Positions 12,673-54,728 of a stretch of DNA of 55,921 nt are shown piece by piece (positions within the stretch are counted from its first letter, which is position 1; the number at the start of each line of letters is the position of its first letter). Location: positions 1 through 55,921 of the IMG/VR virus record IMGVR_UViG_2541047806_000003; one strand, given 5' to 3'. Under the pieces are notes generated by a model, which was given only the letters and a program-made list of their open reading frames with translations, ran no database searches and was not told the origin of the DNA. The position numbers were made by a program, and so were the translations under genes. The stretch is from a virus (taxonomy: Duplodnaviria > Heunggongvirae > Uroviricota > Caudoviricetes).

Positions 12673-12705
12673 AAAACCCCCACAAGTTACATTTTGTATA
12701 TATCT

Positions 12706-12731
12706 TTACGCGCTTCTACGCGAAAAATAAG
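12706..12731. repeat. Conserved 26-bp element TTTACGCGCTTCTACGCGAAAAATAA (copy 1, upstream of M-like gene)
   Basis: 24/26 identical to 25055-25080 upstream of portal gene; contains direct TACGCG repeats. Confidence 0.35.
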
Positions 12732-12743
12732 ATCATTGTCACA
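12727..12743. promoter_or_regulatory. Perfect palindrome ATCATTGT-C-ACAATGAT (operator-like)
   Basis: 8-bp inverted arms read directly; about 30 bp upstream of candidate -35 of moron 3. Confidence 0.35.
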
Positions 12744-12770
12744 ATGATTATAGCTAGTTTACAAAATGGC

Positions 12771-12799
12771 TTCACATAGCACGCAACAAGATGTATATA
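12771..12799 (+). promoter_or_regulatory. Candidate sigma70 promoter for moron 3 (TTCACA-N17-TATATA)
   Basis: Hexamers with 17-bp spacer, TG immediately upstream of -10. Confidence 0.3.
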
Positions 12800-12839
12800 G
12801 AAAGCAAGAAGAAAGTAGTACCAACGAAGGAGGCTCAAA

Positions 12840-12995
12840 ATGAAACGCTATGTAGTAGTAATGCTAAATAACGCATTCGAACAAGTGGAAATAGCAATCG
12901 TTAAGGGTTTCGACGACGCATTCAAATACGGTCAATTCATGATGAATGCGAAAGAAGATGAATACCGGGACTTCTTCCTGAAGGCACTTAACTAA
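12840..12995 (+). CDS. Hypothetical small acidic protein (moron 3, gene 1)
   Basis: 51 aa (MKRYVVVMLNNAFEQVEIAIVKGFDDAF...), strong SD AAGGAGG; below 60-aa ORF-track cutoff. Confidence 0.4.
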   Translation: MKRYVVVMLNNAFEQVEIAIVKGFDDAFKYGQFMMNAKEDEYRDFFLKALN

Positions 12996-13012
12996 GGATG
13001 ATGGGGTGAGTT

Positions 13013-13267
13013 ATGAAACTGGTAGCGATTGACAGAAATCTGAAAGCACAGAAAAACGCACAGGACCGGATCATCAAGAAAGGTAAGGAATTACTTAAAG
13101 CCTTTCTGAGAAAAGAAGTTTACCCCAAAAAGTTACGCGACGGTTACGGATACAAAATGGATATCAATCTTGATTGGAGGCTGTTTAGCGAAGATTTGAA
13201 GGTTTGGTTAATTGTTGAGCACCATGCCTATAACAAGTTATGTGGCGTGAAAGGCACTCATAAGTGA
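13013..13267 (+). CDS. Hypothetical basic protein (moron 3, gene 2)
   Basis: 84 aa, SD GGGGTGAG, 17 nt after gene 1 stop. Confidence 0.5.
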   Translation: MKLVAIDRNLKAQKNAQDRIIKKGKELLKAFLRKEVYPKKLRDGYGYKMDINLDWRLFSEDLKVWLIVEHHAYNKLCGVKGTHK

Positions 13268-13326
13268 GTCGAGATATTCGAAAGGGGATATATCGCGCGG
13301 AATGGTCGTTTATAAATACGAAAAAT

Positions 13327-13359
13327 AACCCCGGCATTGCACCGGGGTTTAGTTTATTT
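13327..13359 (+). terminator. Rho-independent terminator of moron 3
   Basis: Stem AACCCCGG/CCGGGGTT, loop CATTGCA, then T-rich tract. Confidence 0.6.
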
Positions 13360-52187: not shown

Positions 52188-52266
52188 TTAACTTGAGCAA
52201 ACGGCTTACCGGAAAGTTGACCGCTTTCTAGTGGCTGTTTTCGCGCTTAAAACGAGGCGAAAAACA

Positions 52267-52824
52267 ATGAGCATTGAACTTGAAGCAAAAATTATCAATA
52301 TCCTTGAACTTGATGGCATCGACACAATGCACCAGTTACGCCAGAAAACAGGATTATCAGCGGAATATGACGAAGCTGGATGTTTGCCTGAGACAATTAA
52401 ACACTTAATCGACACTGGCATTGTCGAGCGTGTATATACATATTTCGGACCTCGCCGCAGGTTGCTTGGCTATCGAATTAAATATTTGTATGCACAACGT
52501 CGCGATCGTGTGGCATCGTTATTTAGTGACTACAGCGTTAAAAAGCGTATGCGTGACATTAGCGCGGAAACTGGTATTCCGTGGAATTACCTGTCGCGCA
52601 CGCTGCGTTTAATGGTACTGGATGAAACGCTTTGCATAGACACCAATAAGCACGGCCTTAATTTTTACTCACTGTTTAAACCTGGGCGCTTCGGTCACGC
52701 TAATGATCTCGCGTTTGATTTTGACAGCCGCCTGAATGAATACCGGAAAAATAACGGCCTGCTGCCGGATAAACCAGTATTTGAGATCGAAAAACTTAAC
52801 GGTGAAACGGGGTTGGAATTATGA
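52267..52824 (+). CDS. Hypothetical protein
   Basis: 185 aa from ATG 52267 with SD GAGG. Confidence 0.45.
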   Translation: MSIELEAKIINILELDGIDTMHQLRQKTGLSAEYDEAGCLPETIKHLIDTGIVERVYTYFGPRRRLLGYRIKYLYAQRRDRVASLFSDYSVKKRMRDISAETGIPWNYLSRTLRLMVLDETLCIDTNKHGLNFYSLFKPGRFGHANDLAFDFDSRLNEYRKNNGLLPDKPVFEIEKLNGETGLEL

Positions 52825-53027
52825 TACGGGTAATCTTTTATTCAGTTGAAACGTTTGTTGACGATACGCGCGTTTATTATCCGTGGGAAGTATACGACGC
52901 AAAGGTGTATACACCGCCACTGATGCGGAAATATAAACACGTAAAATTTAACCGGGTTTTTGTACCAATGCGTGATGCACTGCGGGTGCTGCGCGGTGAA
53001 TTACGAAACACAATGCGTATTGTGTGA
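52821..53027 (+). CDS. Hypothetical protein
   Basis: 68 aa ORF. Confidence 0.4.
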   Translation: MIRVIFYSVETFVDDTRVYYPWEVYDAKVYTPPLMRKYKHVKFNRVFVPMRDALRVLRGELRNTMRIV

Positions 53028-53036
53028 GGGGCGATC

Positions 53037-53234
53037 ATGAATAAGGAGTTAGATTTAACCATTGAAGACTTTAGCACTATTGCGGAATACATGCGCGGTG
53101 ACGATCCTGATAAACCTGTTGTGGTTGATATGAGATACTTAAAAAGCGCTTTCATGACAAGCTCACGTCTAATTTCTTTGCAGGCGATCATGTATGCGCG
53201 GGCACAGTGGAAAAATAGTAACGATGTATCATGA
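53037..53234 (+). CDS. Hypothetical protein
   Basis: 65 aa ORF. Confidence 0.4.
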   Translation: MNKELDLTIEDFSTIAEYMRGDDPDKPVVVDMRYLKSAFMTSSRLISLQAIMYARAQWKNSNDVS

Positions 53235-53662
53235 GGCAAATAAGATTTGAGATAGTAAATGACGCCGTAAAAGAAAACGCTATCAGGCAGATAAGGGAGA
53301 TACAGCCTGATAGCAAAAGCCCGCTGATAATCACCATCCAGGAGAAAACCCGCTCACTGAGTCAAAACGCGTTGCTTTGGGCGTTGCTGACAGACGTTAG
53401 CGATCAGGTTAACTGGTACGGCAGAAAGCTGTCACCTGAAGACTGGAAGGCGGTATTCACTGCCGGGCTTAAGAAATATGGCGTTGTCCCTAACCTGGAC
53501 AAATCAGGCTTTGTTGTGCTGGGAACATCAACCAGCCGGATGAGTAAAGCGGAATTTAGCGAATTAATCGAACTGATCTACTCGTTCGGTGCTGAACATA
53601 ATGTTCAATGGTCAGGTGATACGAAATTAAACGAGGAATTTATAAAACGCTGGGGGCAATAA
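53231..53662 (+). CDS. ninB: NinB-like recombination protein
   Basis: 143 aa; ITIQEKTRSLSQNALLWALLTDVSDQVNWYGRKLSPEDWK resembles NinB family. Confidence 0.7.
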   Translation: MRQIRFEIVNDAVKENAIRQIREIQPDSKSPLIITIQEKTRSLSQNALLWALLTDVSDQVNWYGRKLSPEDWKAVFTAGLKKYGVVPNLDKSGFVVLGTSTSRMSKAEFSELIELIYSFGAEHNVQWSGDTKLNEEFIKRWGQ

Positions 53663-53838
53663 TGGCTAGTTATTACATGGCTAAACCTACAGGCATTTTG
53701 TATAAGGTTGATGGCGAATACGTTTATTACTTTCACAACCAGGCGCGTGAGTGGCGATTGTGTCACGCGCACTTTAAGCACGAAATAGAAAATCATCCTG
53801 AATATTTTATTAAGGTTGACAATGTAACAGTGGCGTAA
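53662..53838 (+). CDS. Hypothetical small protein
   Basis: 58 aa, TAATG overlap with ninB stop. Confidence 0.35.
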   Translation: MASYYMAKPTGILYKVDGEYVYYFHNQAREWRLCHAHFKHEIENHPEYFIKVDNVTVA

Positions 53839-53853
53839 TTGAGGATAAACAAA

Positions 53854-54510
53854 ATGAGTGAATCAAAAGCAATCGGTGTGATTAGCCATCGCACTAACCC
53901 TGAATGCTACCCATCGTTTGAAGTATCGACATGCAGGGAAGAATATAATTTTGGATCATGTTATTTGGTTGGTGTTCGCGCTGATCGCGACACTTATTCT
54001 GTTATGGCGGCAAGCTGGAAGTTTGATAAATATGCCAATTTATCTAATAAAGATGATGATGGCATGAATAAAGAAAGTGAAATCATTAACGAATTAATCG
54101 AAGATGAGCGGCATGATTGCGATACGCCAGAAGTTACGGAATGGATGGCAGGAGAAAAGCCTCCATGCGGAGTATGGCTTGAGCTTCTAGATCCTGTCGA
54201 TGGTCGGAAATATGTTATTCTGAAATACAAGTATATAAGTGATCGCCTTGCTCTTTTTGTAGAAATGGATGCGCCTGATTTTGAACAAGCCGGGGAATGG
54301 AAGCATTTCGCTCATAAGTTGTATGTAGATCCGAAAGAAAAAACACTGGCTGAAATTGCGTTTGCACTTGCTACTAAGGTTATCGGCGAAGATGCTGCAA
54401 AAGAAATTGATTTTAACCGCGACAACGAATTTTCGTGCGATTATCGCAATATGGCGCAAGCTATTATAGACGGATGTATAGGACACGTTGAATATACGGG
54501 TGGTGAATAA
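53854..54510 (+). CDS. Hypothetical protein
   Basis: 218 aa from ATG 53854 (SD GAGGA). Confidence 0.45.
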   Translation: MSESKAIGVISHRTNPECYPSFEVSTCREEYNFGSCYLVGVRADRDTYSVMAASWKFDKYANLSNKDDDGMNKESEIINELIEDERHDCDTPEVTEWMAGEKPPCGVWLELLDPVDGRKYVILKYKYISDRLALFVEMDAPDFEQAGEWKHFAHKLYVDPKEKTLAEIAFALATKVIGEDAAKEIDFNRDNEFSCDYRNMAQAIIDGCIGHVEYTGGE

Positions 54511-54728
54511 TGGATAAGATCGGGACAATACTTATTAATCGTGAGCAAGTGCAAAAAATGTTAGGCGGGCTTAGTAAGTCCGCCTTTTTTAAGCTCGTTA
54601 AAAAATGGAAAGATTCTGGAACTCCTTTTCCTGAACCTGTCAAGGGGATGCCAGCATTAAAGCGCGGCGGATCTCTTTACCGTTATCAGGACGTTATTTC
54701 ATTTTGTAAATCAATGGGCTTCATGTAG
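54510..54728 (+). CDS. AlpA-like HTH regulator / excisionase candidate
   Basis: 72 aa, HTH, adjacent and convergent to integrase. Confidence 0.55.
   Translation: MDKIGTILINREQVQKMLGGLSKSAFFKLVKKWKDSGTPFPEPVKGMPALKRGGSLYRYQDVISFCKSMGFM

Follow-up and report, generated by a model that had tools for sequence, protein, structure and literature searches.

In phage lambda, OR1 and OR2 lie about 24 bp apart and are bound cooperatively by CI dimers. In the mEpimmI (mEp021-like) group, the repressor Rep021 has been shown experimentally to confer immunity (PMC11893012, section 3.3), and its operators were left undefined (sections 3.3 and 4). Antitermination in this group is N-like with nut sites downstream, as in lambda (PMC11893012). 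Phage P1 C1 uses 22 operators with the asymmetric consensus ATTGCTCTAATAAATTT (PMC8546580), and stoperators of the L5 type have been described for mycobacteriophages (PMC9283540, PMC6550527).

We analyzed a window of 55,921 nucleotides, an E. coli prophage of the mEpimmI group integrated in abgT, in which an earlier note had pointed out a recurrent motif. Judging from the sequence, this motif is likely to be where the prophage's own repressor, a lambda-type CI of the Rep021 family, has its operators.

Enrichment of the motif

The exact motif CCATTTTGTAWA occurs eight times on both strands of the window, compared with 0.07 copies expected from dinucleotide-preserving shuffles, none of which contained more than one copy. 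The copies lie at the following positions:

12758 (−), 15737 (−), 15765 (+), 38414 (−), 38480 (+), 45920 (+), 46763 (+), 50737 (+)

With up to one mismatch in the 10-mer, 25 matches were found (6.15 expected, shuffle maximum 11). A first-order Markov control gave 0.06 expected exact copies and 1.2 copies with one mismatch, of which nine were observed; matches with two mismatches (20 vs 14.5) are mostly noise. No other 10-mer in the window is as over-represented as CCATTTTGTA (10 copies vs 0.18). The enrichment therefore holds under composition-matched null models for the exact motif, and the frequency far above chance claimed in the earlier note was borne out by the count and the shuffles, also with one mismatch allowed.

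A prophage with 98% identity has a RefSeq annotation, and by this annotation seven of the exact copies fall between genes, in line with the placement noted before. The eighth (50737) spans the final 11 nt of a gene, 18 nt 5' of the DnaB-like start. The 13 coordinates listed originally comprise these eight copies, several displaced by 1–2 nt, and five with one mismatch in the 10-mer:

12689, ACATTTTGTA
32295 (reverse), CCATTTTGTT
32321, CCATTTCGTA
53693, GCATTTTGTA
54699, TCATTTTGTA

The last two are doubtful as genuine sites; both lie within coding sequence, and 53693 is no more conserved than its own flanks. The inverted pairs were recovered: 15737/15765 and 32293/32321 are arranged back to back with a 16-bp gap and 38414/38480 is separated by 54 bp. 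The copies 12689 and 12758 face each other. Further copies absent from the earlier list are located at 3755–3771, 11127–11143, 41814–41830, 41838–41854, 45237–45253 and 49596–49612.

Architecture of the site

The 12-mer CCATTTTGTA(A/T)A represents the better-conserved half and the centre of a 17-bp pseudo-palindrome, xxxxCCA-TTT-TGTAWAC, with the core TAC-N5-GTA. CC and G are the most conserved positions. The left half (xxxxCC) breaks the dyad in most copies and its outer four bases are unconserved. The strong conservation of the first C is unexplained by a simple symmetric dimer and counts against CI as the binder. The orientation of the sites is mixed, with about 11 co-directional with transcription vs 5. 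Eight of the 17 strong sites have a second site at a distance of exactly 24 or 25 bp, and almost no partners occur at other offsets from 18 to 60 bp. In four related prophages a matrix scan yielded 17–23 sites each.

Six promoters carry sites centred at −16 and −41 (±1), and a CRP-like site near −60 accompanies six motif-bearing promoters. Three CRP-like sites (3725, 11075, 38446) have CCATTTTGT of the motif in their left flank. P_left and the moron promoter at 11.1 kb resemble each other beyond the motif; duplication of a promoter cassette may explain part of the promoter similarity, which counts against a CI operator.

The immunity region

The following elements were assigned in and around cI:

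46042..46689, − strand: cI repressor gene (Rep021 type), proposed binder of the motif; Pfam HTH_3 1.5e-12, Peptidase_S24 5.8e-19
45916..45932, + strand: O_L1 CAATCCATTTTGTATAC, predicted operator; exact motif, 16.2 bits with the foreign-operator matrix
45891..45907, no strand assigned: O_L2 ATATACGCCCCGTAAAA, weak partner; 5.1 bits, top 0.15% of positions
45890..45918, − strand: P_left TTGACT-17-TATATT; 10/12 match to the σ70 consensus
46759..46775, + strand: O_R1 AATTCCATTTTGTAAAC, predicted operator; exact motif, 16.7 bits
46724..46740, − strand: O_R2 AGTCACAAAACGTGTAT, degenerate copy; arm of inverted repeat I1, 7.7 bits
46749..46776, + strand: P_right TTGATC-16-TAAACT, read from the sequence
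46696..46724, − strand: candidate PRM TTGCAT-17-TAGGGT, read from the sequence

The best solved homologue of CI is the lambda repressor (3bdn, 1.4e-20), to which its C-terminal domain is also homologous, and CI homologues within the group are 90–100% identical. O_L1 is centred at −41 of the leftward early promoter and overlaps the TTG of its −35; its motif columns are identical in 30 of 30 unique homologous P_left sequences. O_L2, at 25 bp from O_L1, covers the −10 and the spacer of P_left (centre −16). P_left drives the N-like gp17 gene (45251–45541; phrog_271 N-like), and the boxA of nutR1 lies at 45847–45831. O_R1 covers the spacer and the −10 of the rightward early promoter, again with its centre at −16. 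P_right is followed by the nutL boxA (46854–46870) and the replication operon, and a CRP-like site (46715–46730) is centred at −60.5. The centre of O_R2 is at −43 of the candidate PRM and at −51 of P_right. The start of the candidate PRM is predicted at the A of the cI ATG (46689), which would yield a leaderless mRNA.

The motif (repeat D1) is the most significant sequence common to the P_left and P_right regions. Several features of this region count against CI: OR and OL contain two recognisable sites each rather than three, O_R1 and O_R2 are spaced by 35 bp rather than 24–25 bp, and CI might instead, or in addition, bind other repeats (ACTTGCA in three copies, and a palindrome ATTTTAAG-N7-CTTAAAAT over the −35 of P_right).

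The helix-turn-helix protein in the Cro position (46995–47252), suggested earlier as a candidate binder, turned out to belong to an O-like replication initiator, as its N-terminal domain (phrog_4617, E 3e-22). A search across the window for a Cro paralogue found none.

Sites in the early and replication operons

38413..38429, − strand: predicted operator GTATCCATTTTGTATAC; exact motif, 18.3 bits
38476..38492, + strand: second operator at 38.4 kb, 63 bp from the first, centre −79; exact motif, 11.6 bits
41814..41854, − strand: predicted operator pair GTATCCGTTTTGTAAAC and ATATACATTTTGTGTTG, 24 bp apart; 15.1 and 15.3 bits
32292..32333, no strand assigned: back-to-back operator pair, 16-bp gap, centres 25 bp apart; 11.5 and 3.5 bits
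45237..45253, + strand: predicted operator GTTTACATTTTGTATTA; 19.4 bits, conserved in 47 loci
49596..49612, no strand assigned: near-perfect palindrome ATATACAAAATGTATAC; 21.7 bits
50733..50749, + strand: predicted operator TATTCCATTTTGTAAAC; exact motif, 15.3 bits, conserved in 45 loci

The first of these is centred at −16 of P_nutR2 (TTGTTT-15-TATACT), an internal early promoter, and lies just 5' of the nutR2 boxA (38397–38380). Among homologues of P_nutR2 the spacers vary, in contrast to the conserved operator, −35-like CTTGT and CRP half-sites. The 41.8 kb pair is located at −16 and −40 of TTGTGA-16-TAAACC, 5' of the gene 41559–41777, with a CRP-like site (41858–41873) at −59.5. At 32.3 kb the sites occupy −17 and −42 of TTGTTT-17-TATAAA, the promoter for the gene 31976–32254; the CRP-like site at −60.5 (32336–32351) is a perfect TGTGA-N6-TCACA in relatives.

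Three sites lie within operons. The site 45237..45253 is found in the leftward operon directly 3' of gp17 and 5' of a Shine-Dalgarno sequence, with no evident promoter seen there. The site 49596..49612 precedes the Shine-Dalgarno sequence of an exonuclease-like gene in the rightward operon, a region variable among relatives, and 50733..50749 adjoins that of the DnaB-like gene (50766–52187) in the rightward operon.

Sites in the tail and moron region

15736..15777, no strand assigned: back-to-back operator pair; two exact motifs, 14.8 and 14.3 bits
12757..12773, − strand: predicted operator GAAGCCATTTTGTAAAC; exact motif, 14.3 bits
12685..12701, + strand: palindromic-type operator AGTTACATTTTGTATAT; 18.6 bits
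11127..11143, + strand: predicted operator TTTTACAATATGTATAT; 19.7 bits
11102–11118: weak partner of the 11.1 kb operator at −41; 3.3 bits
3755..3771, no strand assigned: palindromic-type operator TTATACATAATGTATTT; 21.4 bits, described as highest-scoring

The 15.7 kb pair is situated between the tape-measure gene (13354–15696, −) and a reverse-strand moron (15824–16483, +), at −41 and −16 of the moron promoter TTTACT-17-TATAAG. It is conserved in 17 IMG/VR contigs, even with a different moron downstream. The operator 12757..12773 is placed at −41 of the moron promoter TTCACA-17-TATATA (12771–12799, +) and also within the spacer of a leftward promoter, GTGAAG-17-TATAAT, facing the tail M gene; 12685..12701 is 13 nt from the start codon of that gene (12672). 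At 11.1 kb the stronger site is at −16 of the moron promoter TTGATC-17-TATATT (11116–11144), which also has a CRP-like site (11080–11095). The site 3755..3771 is located between the tail-fibre gene and ORF 3826–4128, beside a CRP-like site (3731–3746); inspection of the sequence there yielded no assignable promoter.

Phages with related CI repressors

This CI and its closest homologues in four other phage lineages have a recognition helix in common (xGxxxHWLxG). In all four lineages the word TAC-N5-GTA is repeated two to three times between cI and cro, and in three of them again downstream of cI, the presumed PL region. The operators of these phages were predicted from position and repetition, which counts against the CI assignment. 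Outside the group, the closest CI is that of Erwinia phage Midgardsormr38, with 45% identity over the whole protein and about 65% (39/60) over residues 4–63; its recognition helix reads GITKGAVSHWLNARREP, vs GITKGGLSHWLNGRREP in this prophage. Midgardsormr38 carries ATAC-N5-GTAT three times in the cI-cro spacer and three times in the PL region; a whole-genome scan found only 7 sites in 50 kb. Vibrio phage H8 likewise shows repeats in both places (TTAC-N5-GTAA, including GATTCCATTGTGTAATA), and three IMG/VR contigs have GTATACA-N3-... repeats in the cI-cro spacer. Stx2 phage 1717 has repeats in this spacer, and no copy was seen in its PL region; for H8 and 1717 the 2–4 kb around cI were covered.

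A matrix built from 15 foreign sites only identified 21 window sites scoring 11 bits or more, compared with a mean of 4.6 and a maximum of 11 in simulations, and the 16 best matches of an earlier ten-operator matrix all belong to the word family of the motif. With a matrix from the window copies only, the foreign cI-cro repeats rank as top matches, as do the sites downstream of cI in three lineages. We favor the CI operator because phages with homologous CI repeat the same word and the matrices recover each other's sites.

Alternative explanations

The motif could also be shared promoter DNA read by host RNA polymerase without a repressor, with TAWANN of the forward copies as the −10 hexamer and the reverse CAAAATGG at −45..−37 as a proximal UP-like α-CTD site between CRP and σ region 4. 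We regard this as unlikely. The fixed positions relative to the −35 and −10 hexamers would fit, as would the orientation of most copies towards downstream genes or nut sites. Where a promoter has CRP at −60.5, 19 bp separate the middle of the CRP-like site from that of the reverse copy's A-tract, which is the distance at which α-CTD sits in class I CRP promoters (CAP-αCTD-DNA structure). This explanation overlaps with the CI operator, since any operator that covers a −10 necessarily includes one. However, the most conserved bases, CC and G, are not required by σ70 or α-CTD, roughly half of the presumed −10 hexamers lack the −7 T, and the conserved bases fill −20..−13, where we know of no polymerase contact that needs them. 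Moreover, the copies 45245, 49604 and 50741 adjoin ribosome-binding sites inside operons without a recognisable promoter, and unrelated lambdoid phages that have only the CI helix-turn-helix in common carry the word two to three times between cI and cro and, in three of them, downstream of cI as well.

Somewhat less probable still is a different binder, such as the MarR-like product of 52231–52824, an O-like initiator or a host factor. The asymmetric look of most copies, the weak HTH or MarR-like matches of several phage proteins and the CCATTTTGT shared with CRP-like flanks would agree with it. CI, however, is the component common to the four word-carrying lineages, the alternative phage proteins are not shared, and the pair pattern in IMG/VR is confined to this phage group. 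By eye, the motif is unlike the IHF, Fis, CRP (G7 replaced by A), LexA, OmpR, CpxR and LacI-family consensus. Between the phage-regulator operator and the host-factor site proposed initially, the sequence points to the former, narrowed to CI; no support was found for the latter, although CRP-like sites adjoin six of the motif-bearing promoters.

It is very improbable that the copies are left over from duplication of a promoter or junction cassette, serving as a homology patch for module exchange without a regulatory role: copies do lie at variable-module boundaries, the same 15.7 kb pair precedes different morons in different prophages and P_left resembles the 11.1 kb promoter, but the 12–17 bp word is kept while flanks diverge, the 24–25 bp spacing and the −16/−41 positions persist in non-homologous contexts, and the word recurs in unrelated phages.

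Proposed mechanism

Based on the CI operator assignment we propose the following mechanism. A CI dimer would bind each 17-bp site via its N-terminal helix-turn-helix, and at sites 24–25 bp apart two dimers would bind cooperatively via their S24-like C-terminal domains. Sites at −16 lie over the −10 and the spacer and those at −41 abut or overlap the −35, and bound CI would therefore exclude RNA polymerase. That CI binds, that it does so cooperatively, whether it represses or activates each promoter and where transcription starts are what we infer here. In the lysogen CI would keep both divergent early promoters on either side of cI closed. The same would apply to three or more internal early promoters, of which one precedes nutR2, and, within the tail operon, to three or more promoters of reverse-strand morons. 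Since six promoters have a CRP-like site near −60, their derepressed strength would depend on cAMP-CRP. Positive autoregulation of cI, as in lambda, could arise from CI bound at O_R2, the degenerate copy centred at −43 of the candidate PRM.

Most likely, about 20 copies on promoters genome-wide, and not only near cI, are CI operators, and one protein thus appears to control many separate transcription units, the predicted targets being early, internal early and reverse-strand moron promoters. Repression of the latter would leave the morons silent in the lysogen, which is not the usual expectation for morons and counts against CI.

Comparison with known systems

The prophage resembles lambda in its repressor, with an N-terminal Cro/CI helix-turn-helix and a homologous C-terminal S24 domain, and in its 17-bp sites, which are symmetric in part and have one half well conserved and the other variable. 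As in lambda, sites overlap the −10 and −35 of the divergent early promoters flanking cI, neighbouring sites are 24–25 bp apart and a site lies at about −42/−43 of the candidate PRM. Unlike lambda, it shows only two recognisable sites each in OR and OL, about 15 sites beyond the immunity region (internal early promoters, moron promoters, ribosome-binding sites) and CRP-like sites at six promoters. It also has no detectable Cro gene in the window, the first gene of the rightward operon encoding a replication-initiator domain.

Midgardsormr38, H8 and 1717 share the TAC-N5-GTA word and the recognition helix in their predicted operators, with neighbouring sites 25–33 bp apart. These phages, however, carry an XRE-type Cro with a similar helix, and in Midgardsormr38, the only relative scanned whole, the sites (three OR, three OL) are confined to the immunity region.

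P1 C1 is comparable in layout, being one immunity repressor with roughly 20 scattered 17-bp operators, single or in inverted pairs. C1 is unrelated to HTH_3/S24 repressors, however, as is the operator sequence, and P1 operators are truly asymmetric and bound by a monomer, whereas the site described here is a pseudo-palindrome suited to a dimer.

The stoperators of the Cluster A mycobacteriophage L5 are likewise short repressor sites in many copies, found in the early as well as the late regions and for the most part in short gaps between genes. They differ in being asymmetric, 12–13 bp long, bound by a monomeric two-domain repressor and of one orientation relative to transcription, whereas the prophage has a lambda-like repressor, mixed orientation and most sites on promoters. 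By analogy, the sites 45245, 49604, 50741 and 12693, which lie in operons without a promoter, could block elongation in a stoperator-like manner.

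Prophage organization and the CI repressor

A megablast search placed the window among the mEp021-like, Nus-dependent, non-lambdoid coliphages (mEpimmI group). It represents a prophage inserted in abgT, and related prophages were found in 35 of 5,426 complete E. coli genomes. The reported frequency of mEpimmI phages in human gut E. coli equals that of lambdoid phages (PMC11893012). The window is organized as follows:

4.1–30 kb, minus strand: late genes
11.2–12.0, 12.8–13.3 and 15.8–16.9 kb, plus strand: morons (small gene cassettes) in the tail operon
30–45.5 kb, minus strand: long leftward early operon
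46042–46689, minus strand: cI, followed by a rightward replication operon, with the integrase gene at the right end

The CI repressor comprises an N-terminal HTH_3 domain of the Cro/CI type (Pfam, 1.5e-12) together with a C-terminal, LexA-like Peptidase_S24 domain (5.8e-19). Its best match among solved structures is the lambda repressor (3bdn, 1.4e-20), and its C-terminal domain is homologous to that of lambda CI. A Pfam search of the candidate regulators of the window yielded nothing besides CI. The CI homologue Rep021 confers immunity; the report on it does not define operators or mention the repeat described here (PMC11893012).

Enrichment and structure of the motif

The word CCATTTTGTAWA occurs in eight exact copies on both strands, compared with 0.07 expected from dinucleotide-preserving shuffles of the window. 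With up to one mismatch, 25 copies of the 10-mer were counted (6.15 expected). Under a first-order Markov null the enrichment persisted for exact copies (8 versus 0.06) and for one-mismatch copies (9 versus 1.2); the two-mismatch copies (20 versus 14.5) are largely noise. The 10-mer with the highest over-representation in the whole window is CCATTTTGTA. An earlier note on this DNA had described such a word as recurring far above chance, which these counts confirm. Eight of its 13 positions are exact copies and five have one mismatch; two of the latter (53693 and 54699) lie in coding sequence and are doubtful. The note had also called the motif intergenic, and in the annotation of a prophage with 98% identity seven of the eight exact copies do fall outside genes. 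When the motif strings were searched for in full-text literature, only unrelated primers were matched.

Coding-region matches at 13156, 47732 and 53697 were not counted as operators, because their conservation is no better than that of the flanks. A near-perfect palindrome, ATATACACTTCGTGTAT, with an operator score of 13.3 bits, is found at 47724–47740 within the Lin1244-type replication gene and could be due to chance or origin-related. The shorter word ACAAAATGG at 19888, 53849, 10334, 11168 and 46676 belongs either to a start-codon context (SD-N-ACAAAATGG) or to the N-terminal codons of cI (MKTKW). Since it serves these roles, the count of the 8-mer CATTTTGT (25 copies, 3.3 expected) is inflated independently of the operator family. 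We rejected a small-ORF start as the role of the motif: the start contexts (19888, 53849 and the cI N-terminus) are distinct from the 12-mer family.

The motif can be extended to a 17-bp site, xxxxCCA-TTT-TGTAWAC, with the core TAC-N5-GTA. It shows partial twofold symmetry, with six of eight symmetric pairs in GTATCCATTTTGTATAC and a nearly perfect arrangement in ATATACAAAATGTATAC.

Comparison with related repressors

The closest CI outside the group, identified by tblastn, is that of the lambdoid Erwinia phage Midgardsormr38. It is 45% identical to the window CI overall, with 39 of 60 identical positions (~65%) for residues 4–63 and an almost identical recognition helix. Midgardsormr38 contains three ATAC-N5-GTAT repeats between cI and cro and three more in the PL region; its site GAATACATTTTGTATAT includes ACATTTTGTATA, as do the window copies 49597 and 12689. 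Vibrio phage H8, which has a CI homologue, displays the same arrangement and the TAC-N5-GTA core, including GATTCCATTGTGTAATA. Arrangement and core are also shared by three IMG/VR contigs with a CI homologue, and in Stx2 phage 1717 the TAC-N5-GTA repeats were seen in cI-cro only. The 933W repressor (PMC3317979), which may belong to another subfamily, was left out of this comparison.

A symmetrised matrix built from 15 foreign sites alone identified 21 window sites at or above the cut-off of 11 bits, compared with a simulated mean of 4.6 and a maximum of 11. The 16 best matches of an earlier ten-operator matrix all fall into the word family of the motif. With a matrix derived from the window only, the foreign cI-cro repeats ranked top in their loci, as did sites downstream of cI in three lineages. 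Each of four related prophages contains 17–23 sites; Midgardsormr38 has 7 in 50 kb. In L004 (NZ_CP076272.1), a more distant group member, several HNH endonuclease genes are inserted at module junctions, adjoining ERF, NinG, head genes and a ParE-like moron, and the junctions bearing predicted operators are retained.

Promoter geometry

Eight predicted sigma-70 promoters have a site centred at −16 that covers spacer and −10 hexamer (TAWANN). Six of these promoters have a second site, centred at −40 to −42, which abuts or overlaps the −35 hexamer. The promoters discussed in the following are:

P_left, the leftward early promoter (N-like gene): TTGACT-17-TATATT, 10/12 match, with O_L1 at −41 and O_L2 at −16
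Other promoters with both sites: before genes 41777 and 32254, and at the morons at 11.1, 12.8 and 15.8 kb
P_right, the rightward early promoter: TTGATC-16-TAAACT, with O_R1 at −16, followed by the nutL boxA
Promoter directly upstream of the nutR2 boxA: carries a −16 site
46696–46724, minus strand: candidate cI promoter (PRM), TTGCAT-17-TAGGGT, predicted start at the A of the cI ATG (46689)

Transcription is predicted to start near 45883 (minus strand) from P_left, 46783 (plus) from P_right, 46689 (minus) from the candidate PRM and 38405 (minus) from the nutR2 promoter; for genes 41777 and 32254 the predicted starts are near 41806 and 32283 (both minus), and for the morons near 15785, 12806 and 11151 (all plus). 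The early promoters are divergent on both sides of cI, and the predicted operators overlap their core. The motif is the most significant sequence common to the P_left and P_right regions and is identical in 30 unique P_left sequences. Among the 17 strong window sites, eight have a partner exactly 24 or 25 bp away, with hardly any at other offsets between 18 and 60. In lambda, OR1 and OR2 are 24 bp apart. Inverted pairs had been pointed out in the earlier note; where the gap is 16 bp, the two members are the −41 and the −16 site of a single promoter, 25 bp from centre to centre. With respect to the local genes, ~11 copies are co-directional and 5 opposed, and several form inverted pairs. Sites 12693, 45245, 49604 and 50741 are located just 5' of ribosome-binding sites inside operons, with no recognisable promoter.

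A degenerate operator is centred at −43 of the candidate PRM. Judged from the predicted start, cI mRNA from this promoter would be leaderless, as in lambda. At 41787–41810 (minus strand) an inverted repeat, GTAAACC-N10-GGTTTAC, has its beginning within the 41.8 kb operator and is followed by the ribosome-binding site of gene 41777; it may form a hairpin in RNA or be bound by another protein. A promoter match of the extended −10 type, TGGTAGAAT (3719–3727, minus strand), faces the side tail-fibre gene (1889–3685) and overlaps the motif-like CCATTTTGTGATC and a CRP-like site.

CRP-like sites

Sites of the form TGTGA-N6-TCACA with at most one mismatch occur seven times in the window (1.5 expected, maximum 5). 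The CRP-like sites, with at most one mismatch except 15717, are:

3731–3746
11080–11095
15717–15732
32336–32351
38456–38471
41858–41873
46715–46730

In six motif-bearing promoters their centres lie at −58.5, −59.5, −60.5 (three times) and −63.5 from the predicted starts. In class I promoters CRP is centred near −61.5. Across 35 unique homologues of the 38.4 kb region, the CRP half-sites are conserved and the N6 spacer varies. The constant distance of the motif to this independent element supports the promoter assignments. The enrichment and placement of the CRP-like sites suggest cAMP-CRP control of the early and moron promoters. A presumed second motif beside the pairs, ACAGATCACATTT, was discarded (18 versus 19.3 expected); it corresponds to half-sites of the CRP-like sites.

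An operator, a CRP site and a conserved −35-like CTTGT are combined in the nutR2 promoter. The nutR2 boxA, TGCTCTTTAAAAATCCGG (38380–38438 region, minus strand), follows the start predicted for its own promoter by ~8 nt, so that this third nut site may serve a separate internal promoter and not the long P_left transcript.

Probable assignment of the motif to CI

The earlier note had suggested the operator of a phage regulator. The observed enrichment, geometry, spacing, conservation and cross-phage match support this and narrow the regulator to CI, whose operator the motif most likely is. With regard to the spread of the sites, a recombination-linker or duplicated-cassette origin may account for it, because the conserved pair is followed by different morons; why spacing and positions have been maintained is not explained in this way. 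Alternatively, the motif could be a promoter element only, i.e. a −10 plus an UP-like element, as its constant position with respect to the −35 and −10 hexamers might indicate. The same position is, however, equally expected of an operator overlapping a promoter, and the most conserved positions, CC at −20/−19 and TTTTG at −17 to −13, exceed the bases read by sigma-70 or alpha-CTD. A promoter element would moreover leave unexplained the promoter-less copies and the recurrence of this word in the immunity regions of other phages. We regard these relatives of CI as the decisive evidence for a predicted CI operator over a pure promoter element.

Binding of another protein is unlikely because CI is the component common to the comparison phages. 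The HTH protein at the Cro position had been offered as a candidate in the earlier note; its ORF (46995–47252, plus strand) corresponds to the winged-helix domain found at the N-terminus of an O-like replication initiator (phrog_4617, 3e-22). When two Cro proteins and the N-terminal domain of CI were used as tblastn queries, cI alone was matched in the window, with no Cro paralogue recognisable by sequence. The mEpimmI group may be without a Cro.

By-eye comparison with consensus sequences gave no convincing match for sigma-54, sigma-32, sigma-S, IHF, Fis, LexA, OmpR, CpxR, TyrR, the GalR/LacI family, PhoP or DnaA. An RNA hairpin or RNase III site was rejected, with inverted pairs at two or three loci only and most copies upstream of predicted starts, and so was a Q-binding site, as the best candidate late promoter (30369–30342) carries no motif copy. 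Downstream of the Q-like gene (36234–36956), at a distance of 6 kb, two features may together make up a late promoter with a tR'-like unit:

30342–30369, minus strand: promoter-like TTAAGA-16-TAAAAT, ~290 nt upstream of the terminator
30044–30062, minus strand: strong intrinsic terminator just upstream of the holin gene

Some features pose difficulties for the assignment to CI. Symmetry is lacking in the left half-site, whose first C is highly conserved. Neither the palindrome ATTTTAAG-N7-CTTAAAAT, centred on the −35 of P_right (46737–46761), nor the three copies of ACTTGCA in the immunity region (46774–46812, 46720–46726) are accounted for; two of these copies form small palindromes, CTTGCAGACAAG and CTTGCAAAGACGCAAG, at +1 to +30 of P_right. 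Apart from this, the stretch separating the tail M gene from the ParE-like moron holds a perfect 17-bp palindrome, ATCATTGTCACAATGAT (12732–12748), with a perfect TATAAT (12747–12752, minus strand) immediately upstream of it. Another regulator, e.g. the toxin-antitoxin-like moron, may use this palindrome as its operator.

Proposed mechanism

From the sequence data we infer cooperative binding by CI, the sign of its control and every start site, and propose the following mechanism. CI dimers would occupy the 17-bp sites, with pairs 24–25 bp apart filled cooperatively. Bound at −16 and −41, CI would keep RNA polymerase out, so that in the lysogen one repressor would silence the early promoter on either side of cI, three or more internal early promoters and, unexpectedly, those of the morons within the tail operon. 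Once derepressed, the promoters would depend on cAMP-CRP for their strength. The degenerate site at −43 of the candidate PRM could mediate positive autoregulation of cI, as in lambda.

A more far-reaching version, which we put forward only tentatively and consider rather doubtful, assumes genome-wide control by CI of all promoters of the host polymerase in a phage lacking Cro; each promoter would follow a common design, a CRP site near −60 plus operators at −41 and −16. In this case ~20 operators would tie the early, internal early and antisense moron promoters to CI, which would be unusual for this repressor class. Lone sites positioned between −41 and −43, as in PRM and in the moron promoter at 12.8 kb with its degenerate −16 site, would act as class II activator sites, and the promoter-less sites before ribosome-binding sites as roadblocks, like the stoperators of mycobacteriophages.

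The operator model, the site list and the eight predicted promoters make the lysis-lysogeny circuit of the group directly testable. If the moron promoters are controlled as proposed, antisense accessory genes of the tail operon would be subject to immunity and cAMP-CRP control instead of being constitutive, which bears on the timing of exclusion lipoproteins and toxin-like morons. In the literature that could be searched, which left one relevant paper uncovered, we saw neither the operator nor its spread over the genome described.

Comparison with known systems

The window shares most defining features of the lambda CI/operator switch, namely an HTH plus S24 repressor, ~17-bp sites, promoter overlap and a spacing of ~24 bp. 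Three operators at each of OR and OL are lacking, and no Cro sharing them was recognised; OR and OL have one strong and one weak site each, those of OR being separated by 35 bp. The apparent lack of Cro would be a further departure from the lambda paradigm.

In the number and dispersal of its sites the window resembles phage P1, for which 22 scattered C1 operators are described (PMC8546580). The window likewise has ~20 sites, dispersed outside the immunity region at ten loci (3.7, 11.1, 12.7, 15.7, 32.3, 38.4, 41.8, 45.2, 49.6 and 50.7 kb). The P1 C1 family, however, binds an asymmetric site as a monomer, whereas the window combines an HTH_3 plus S24 repressor with a pseudo-palindromic site. 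A similar dispersal is known for the stoperators of Cluster A mycobacteriophages (PMC9283540, PMC6550527). Stoperators share one orientation relative to transcription and stop elongation inside operons; the window copies are of mixed orientation, and four promoter-less sites are found at ribosome-binding sites. Membership of the P1 C1 or Cluster A type is excluded because repressor family, site symmetry and the mixed orientation differ. If CI does occupy the ~20 dispersed sites, it would be a lambda-type repressor with the genome-wide control known from P1 C1 and mycobacteriophage L5.
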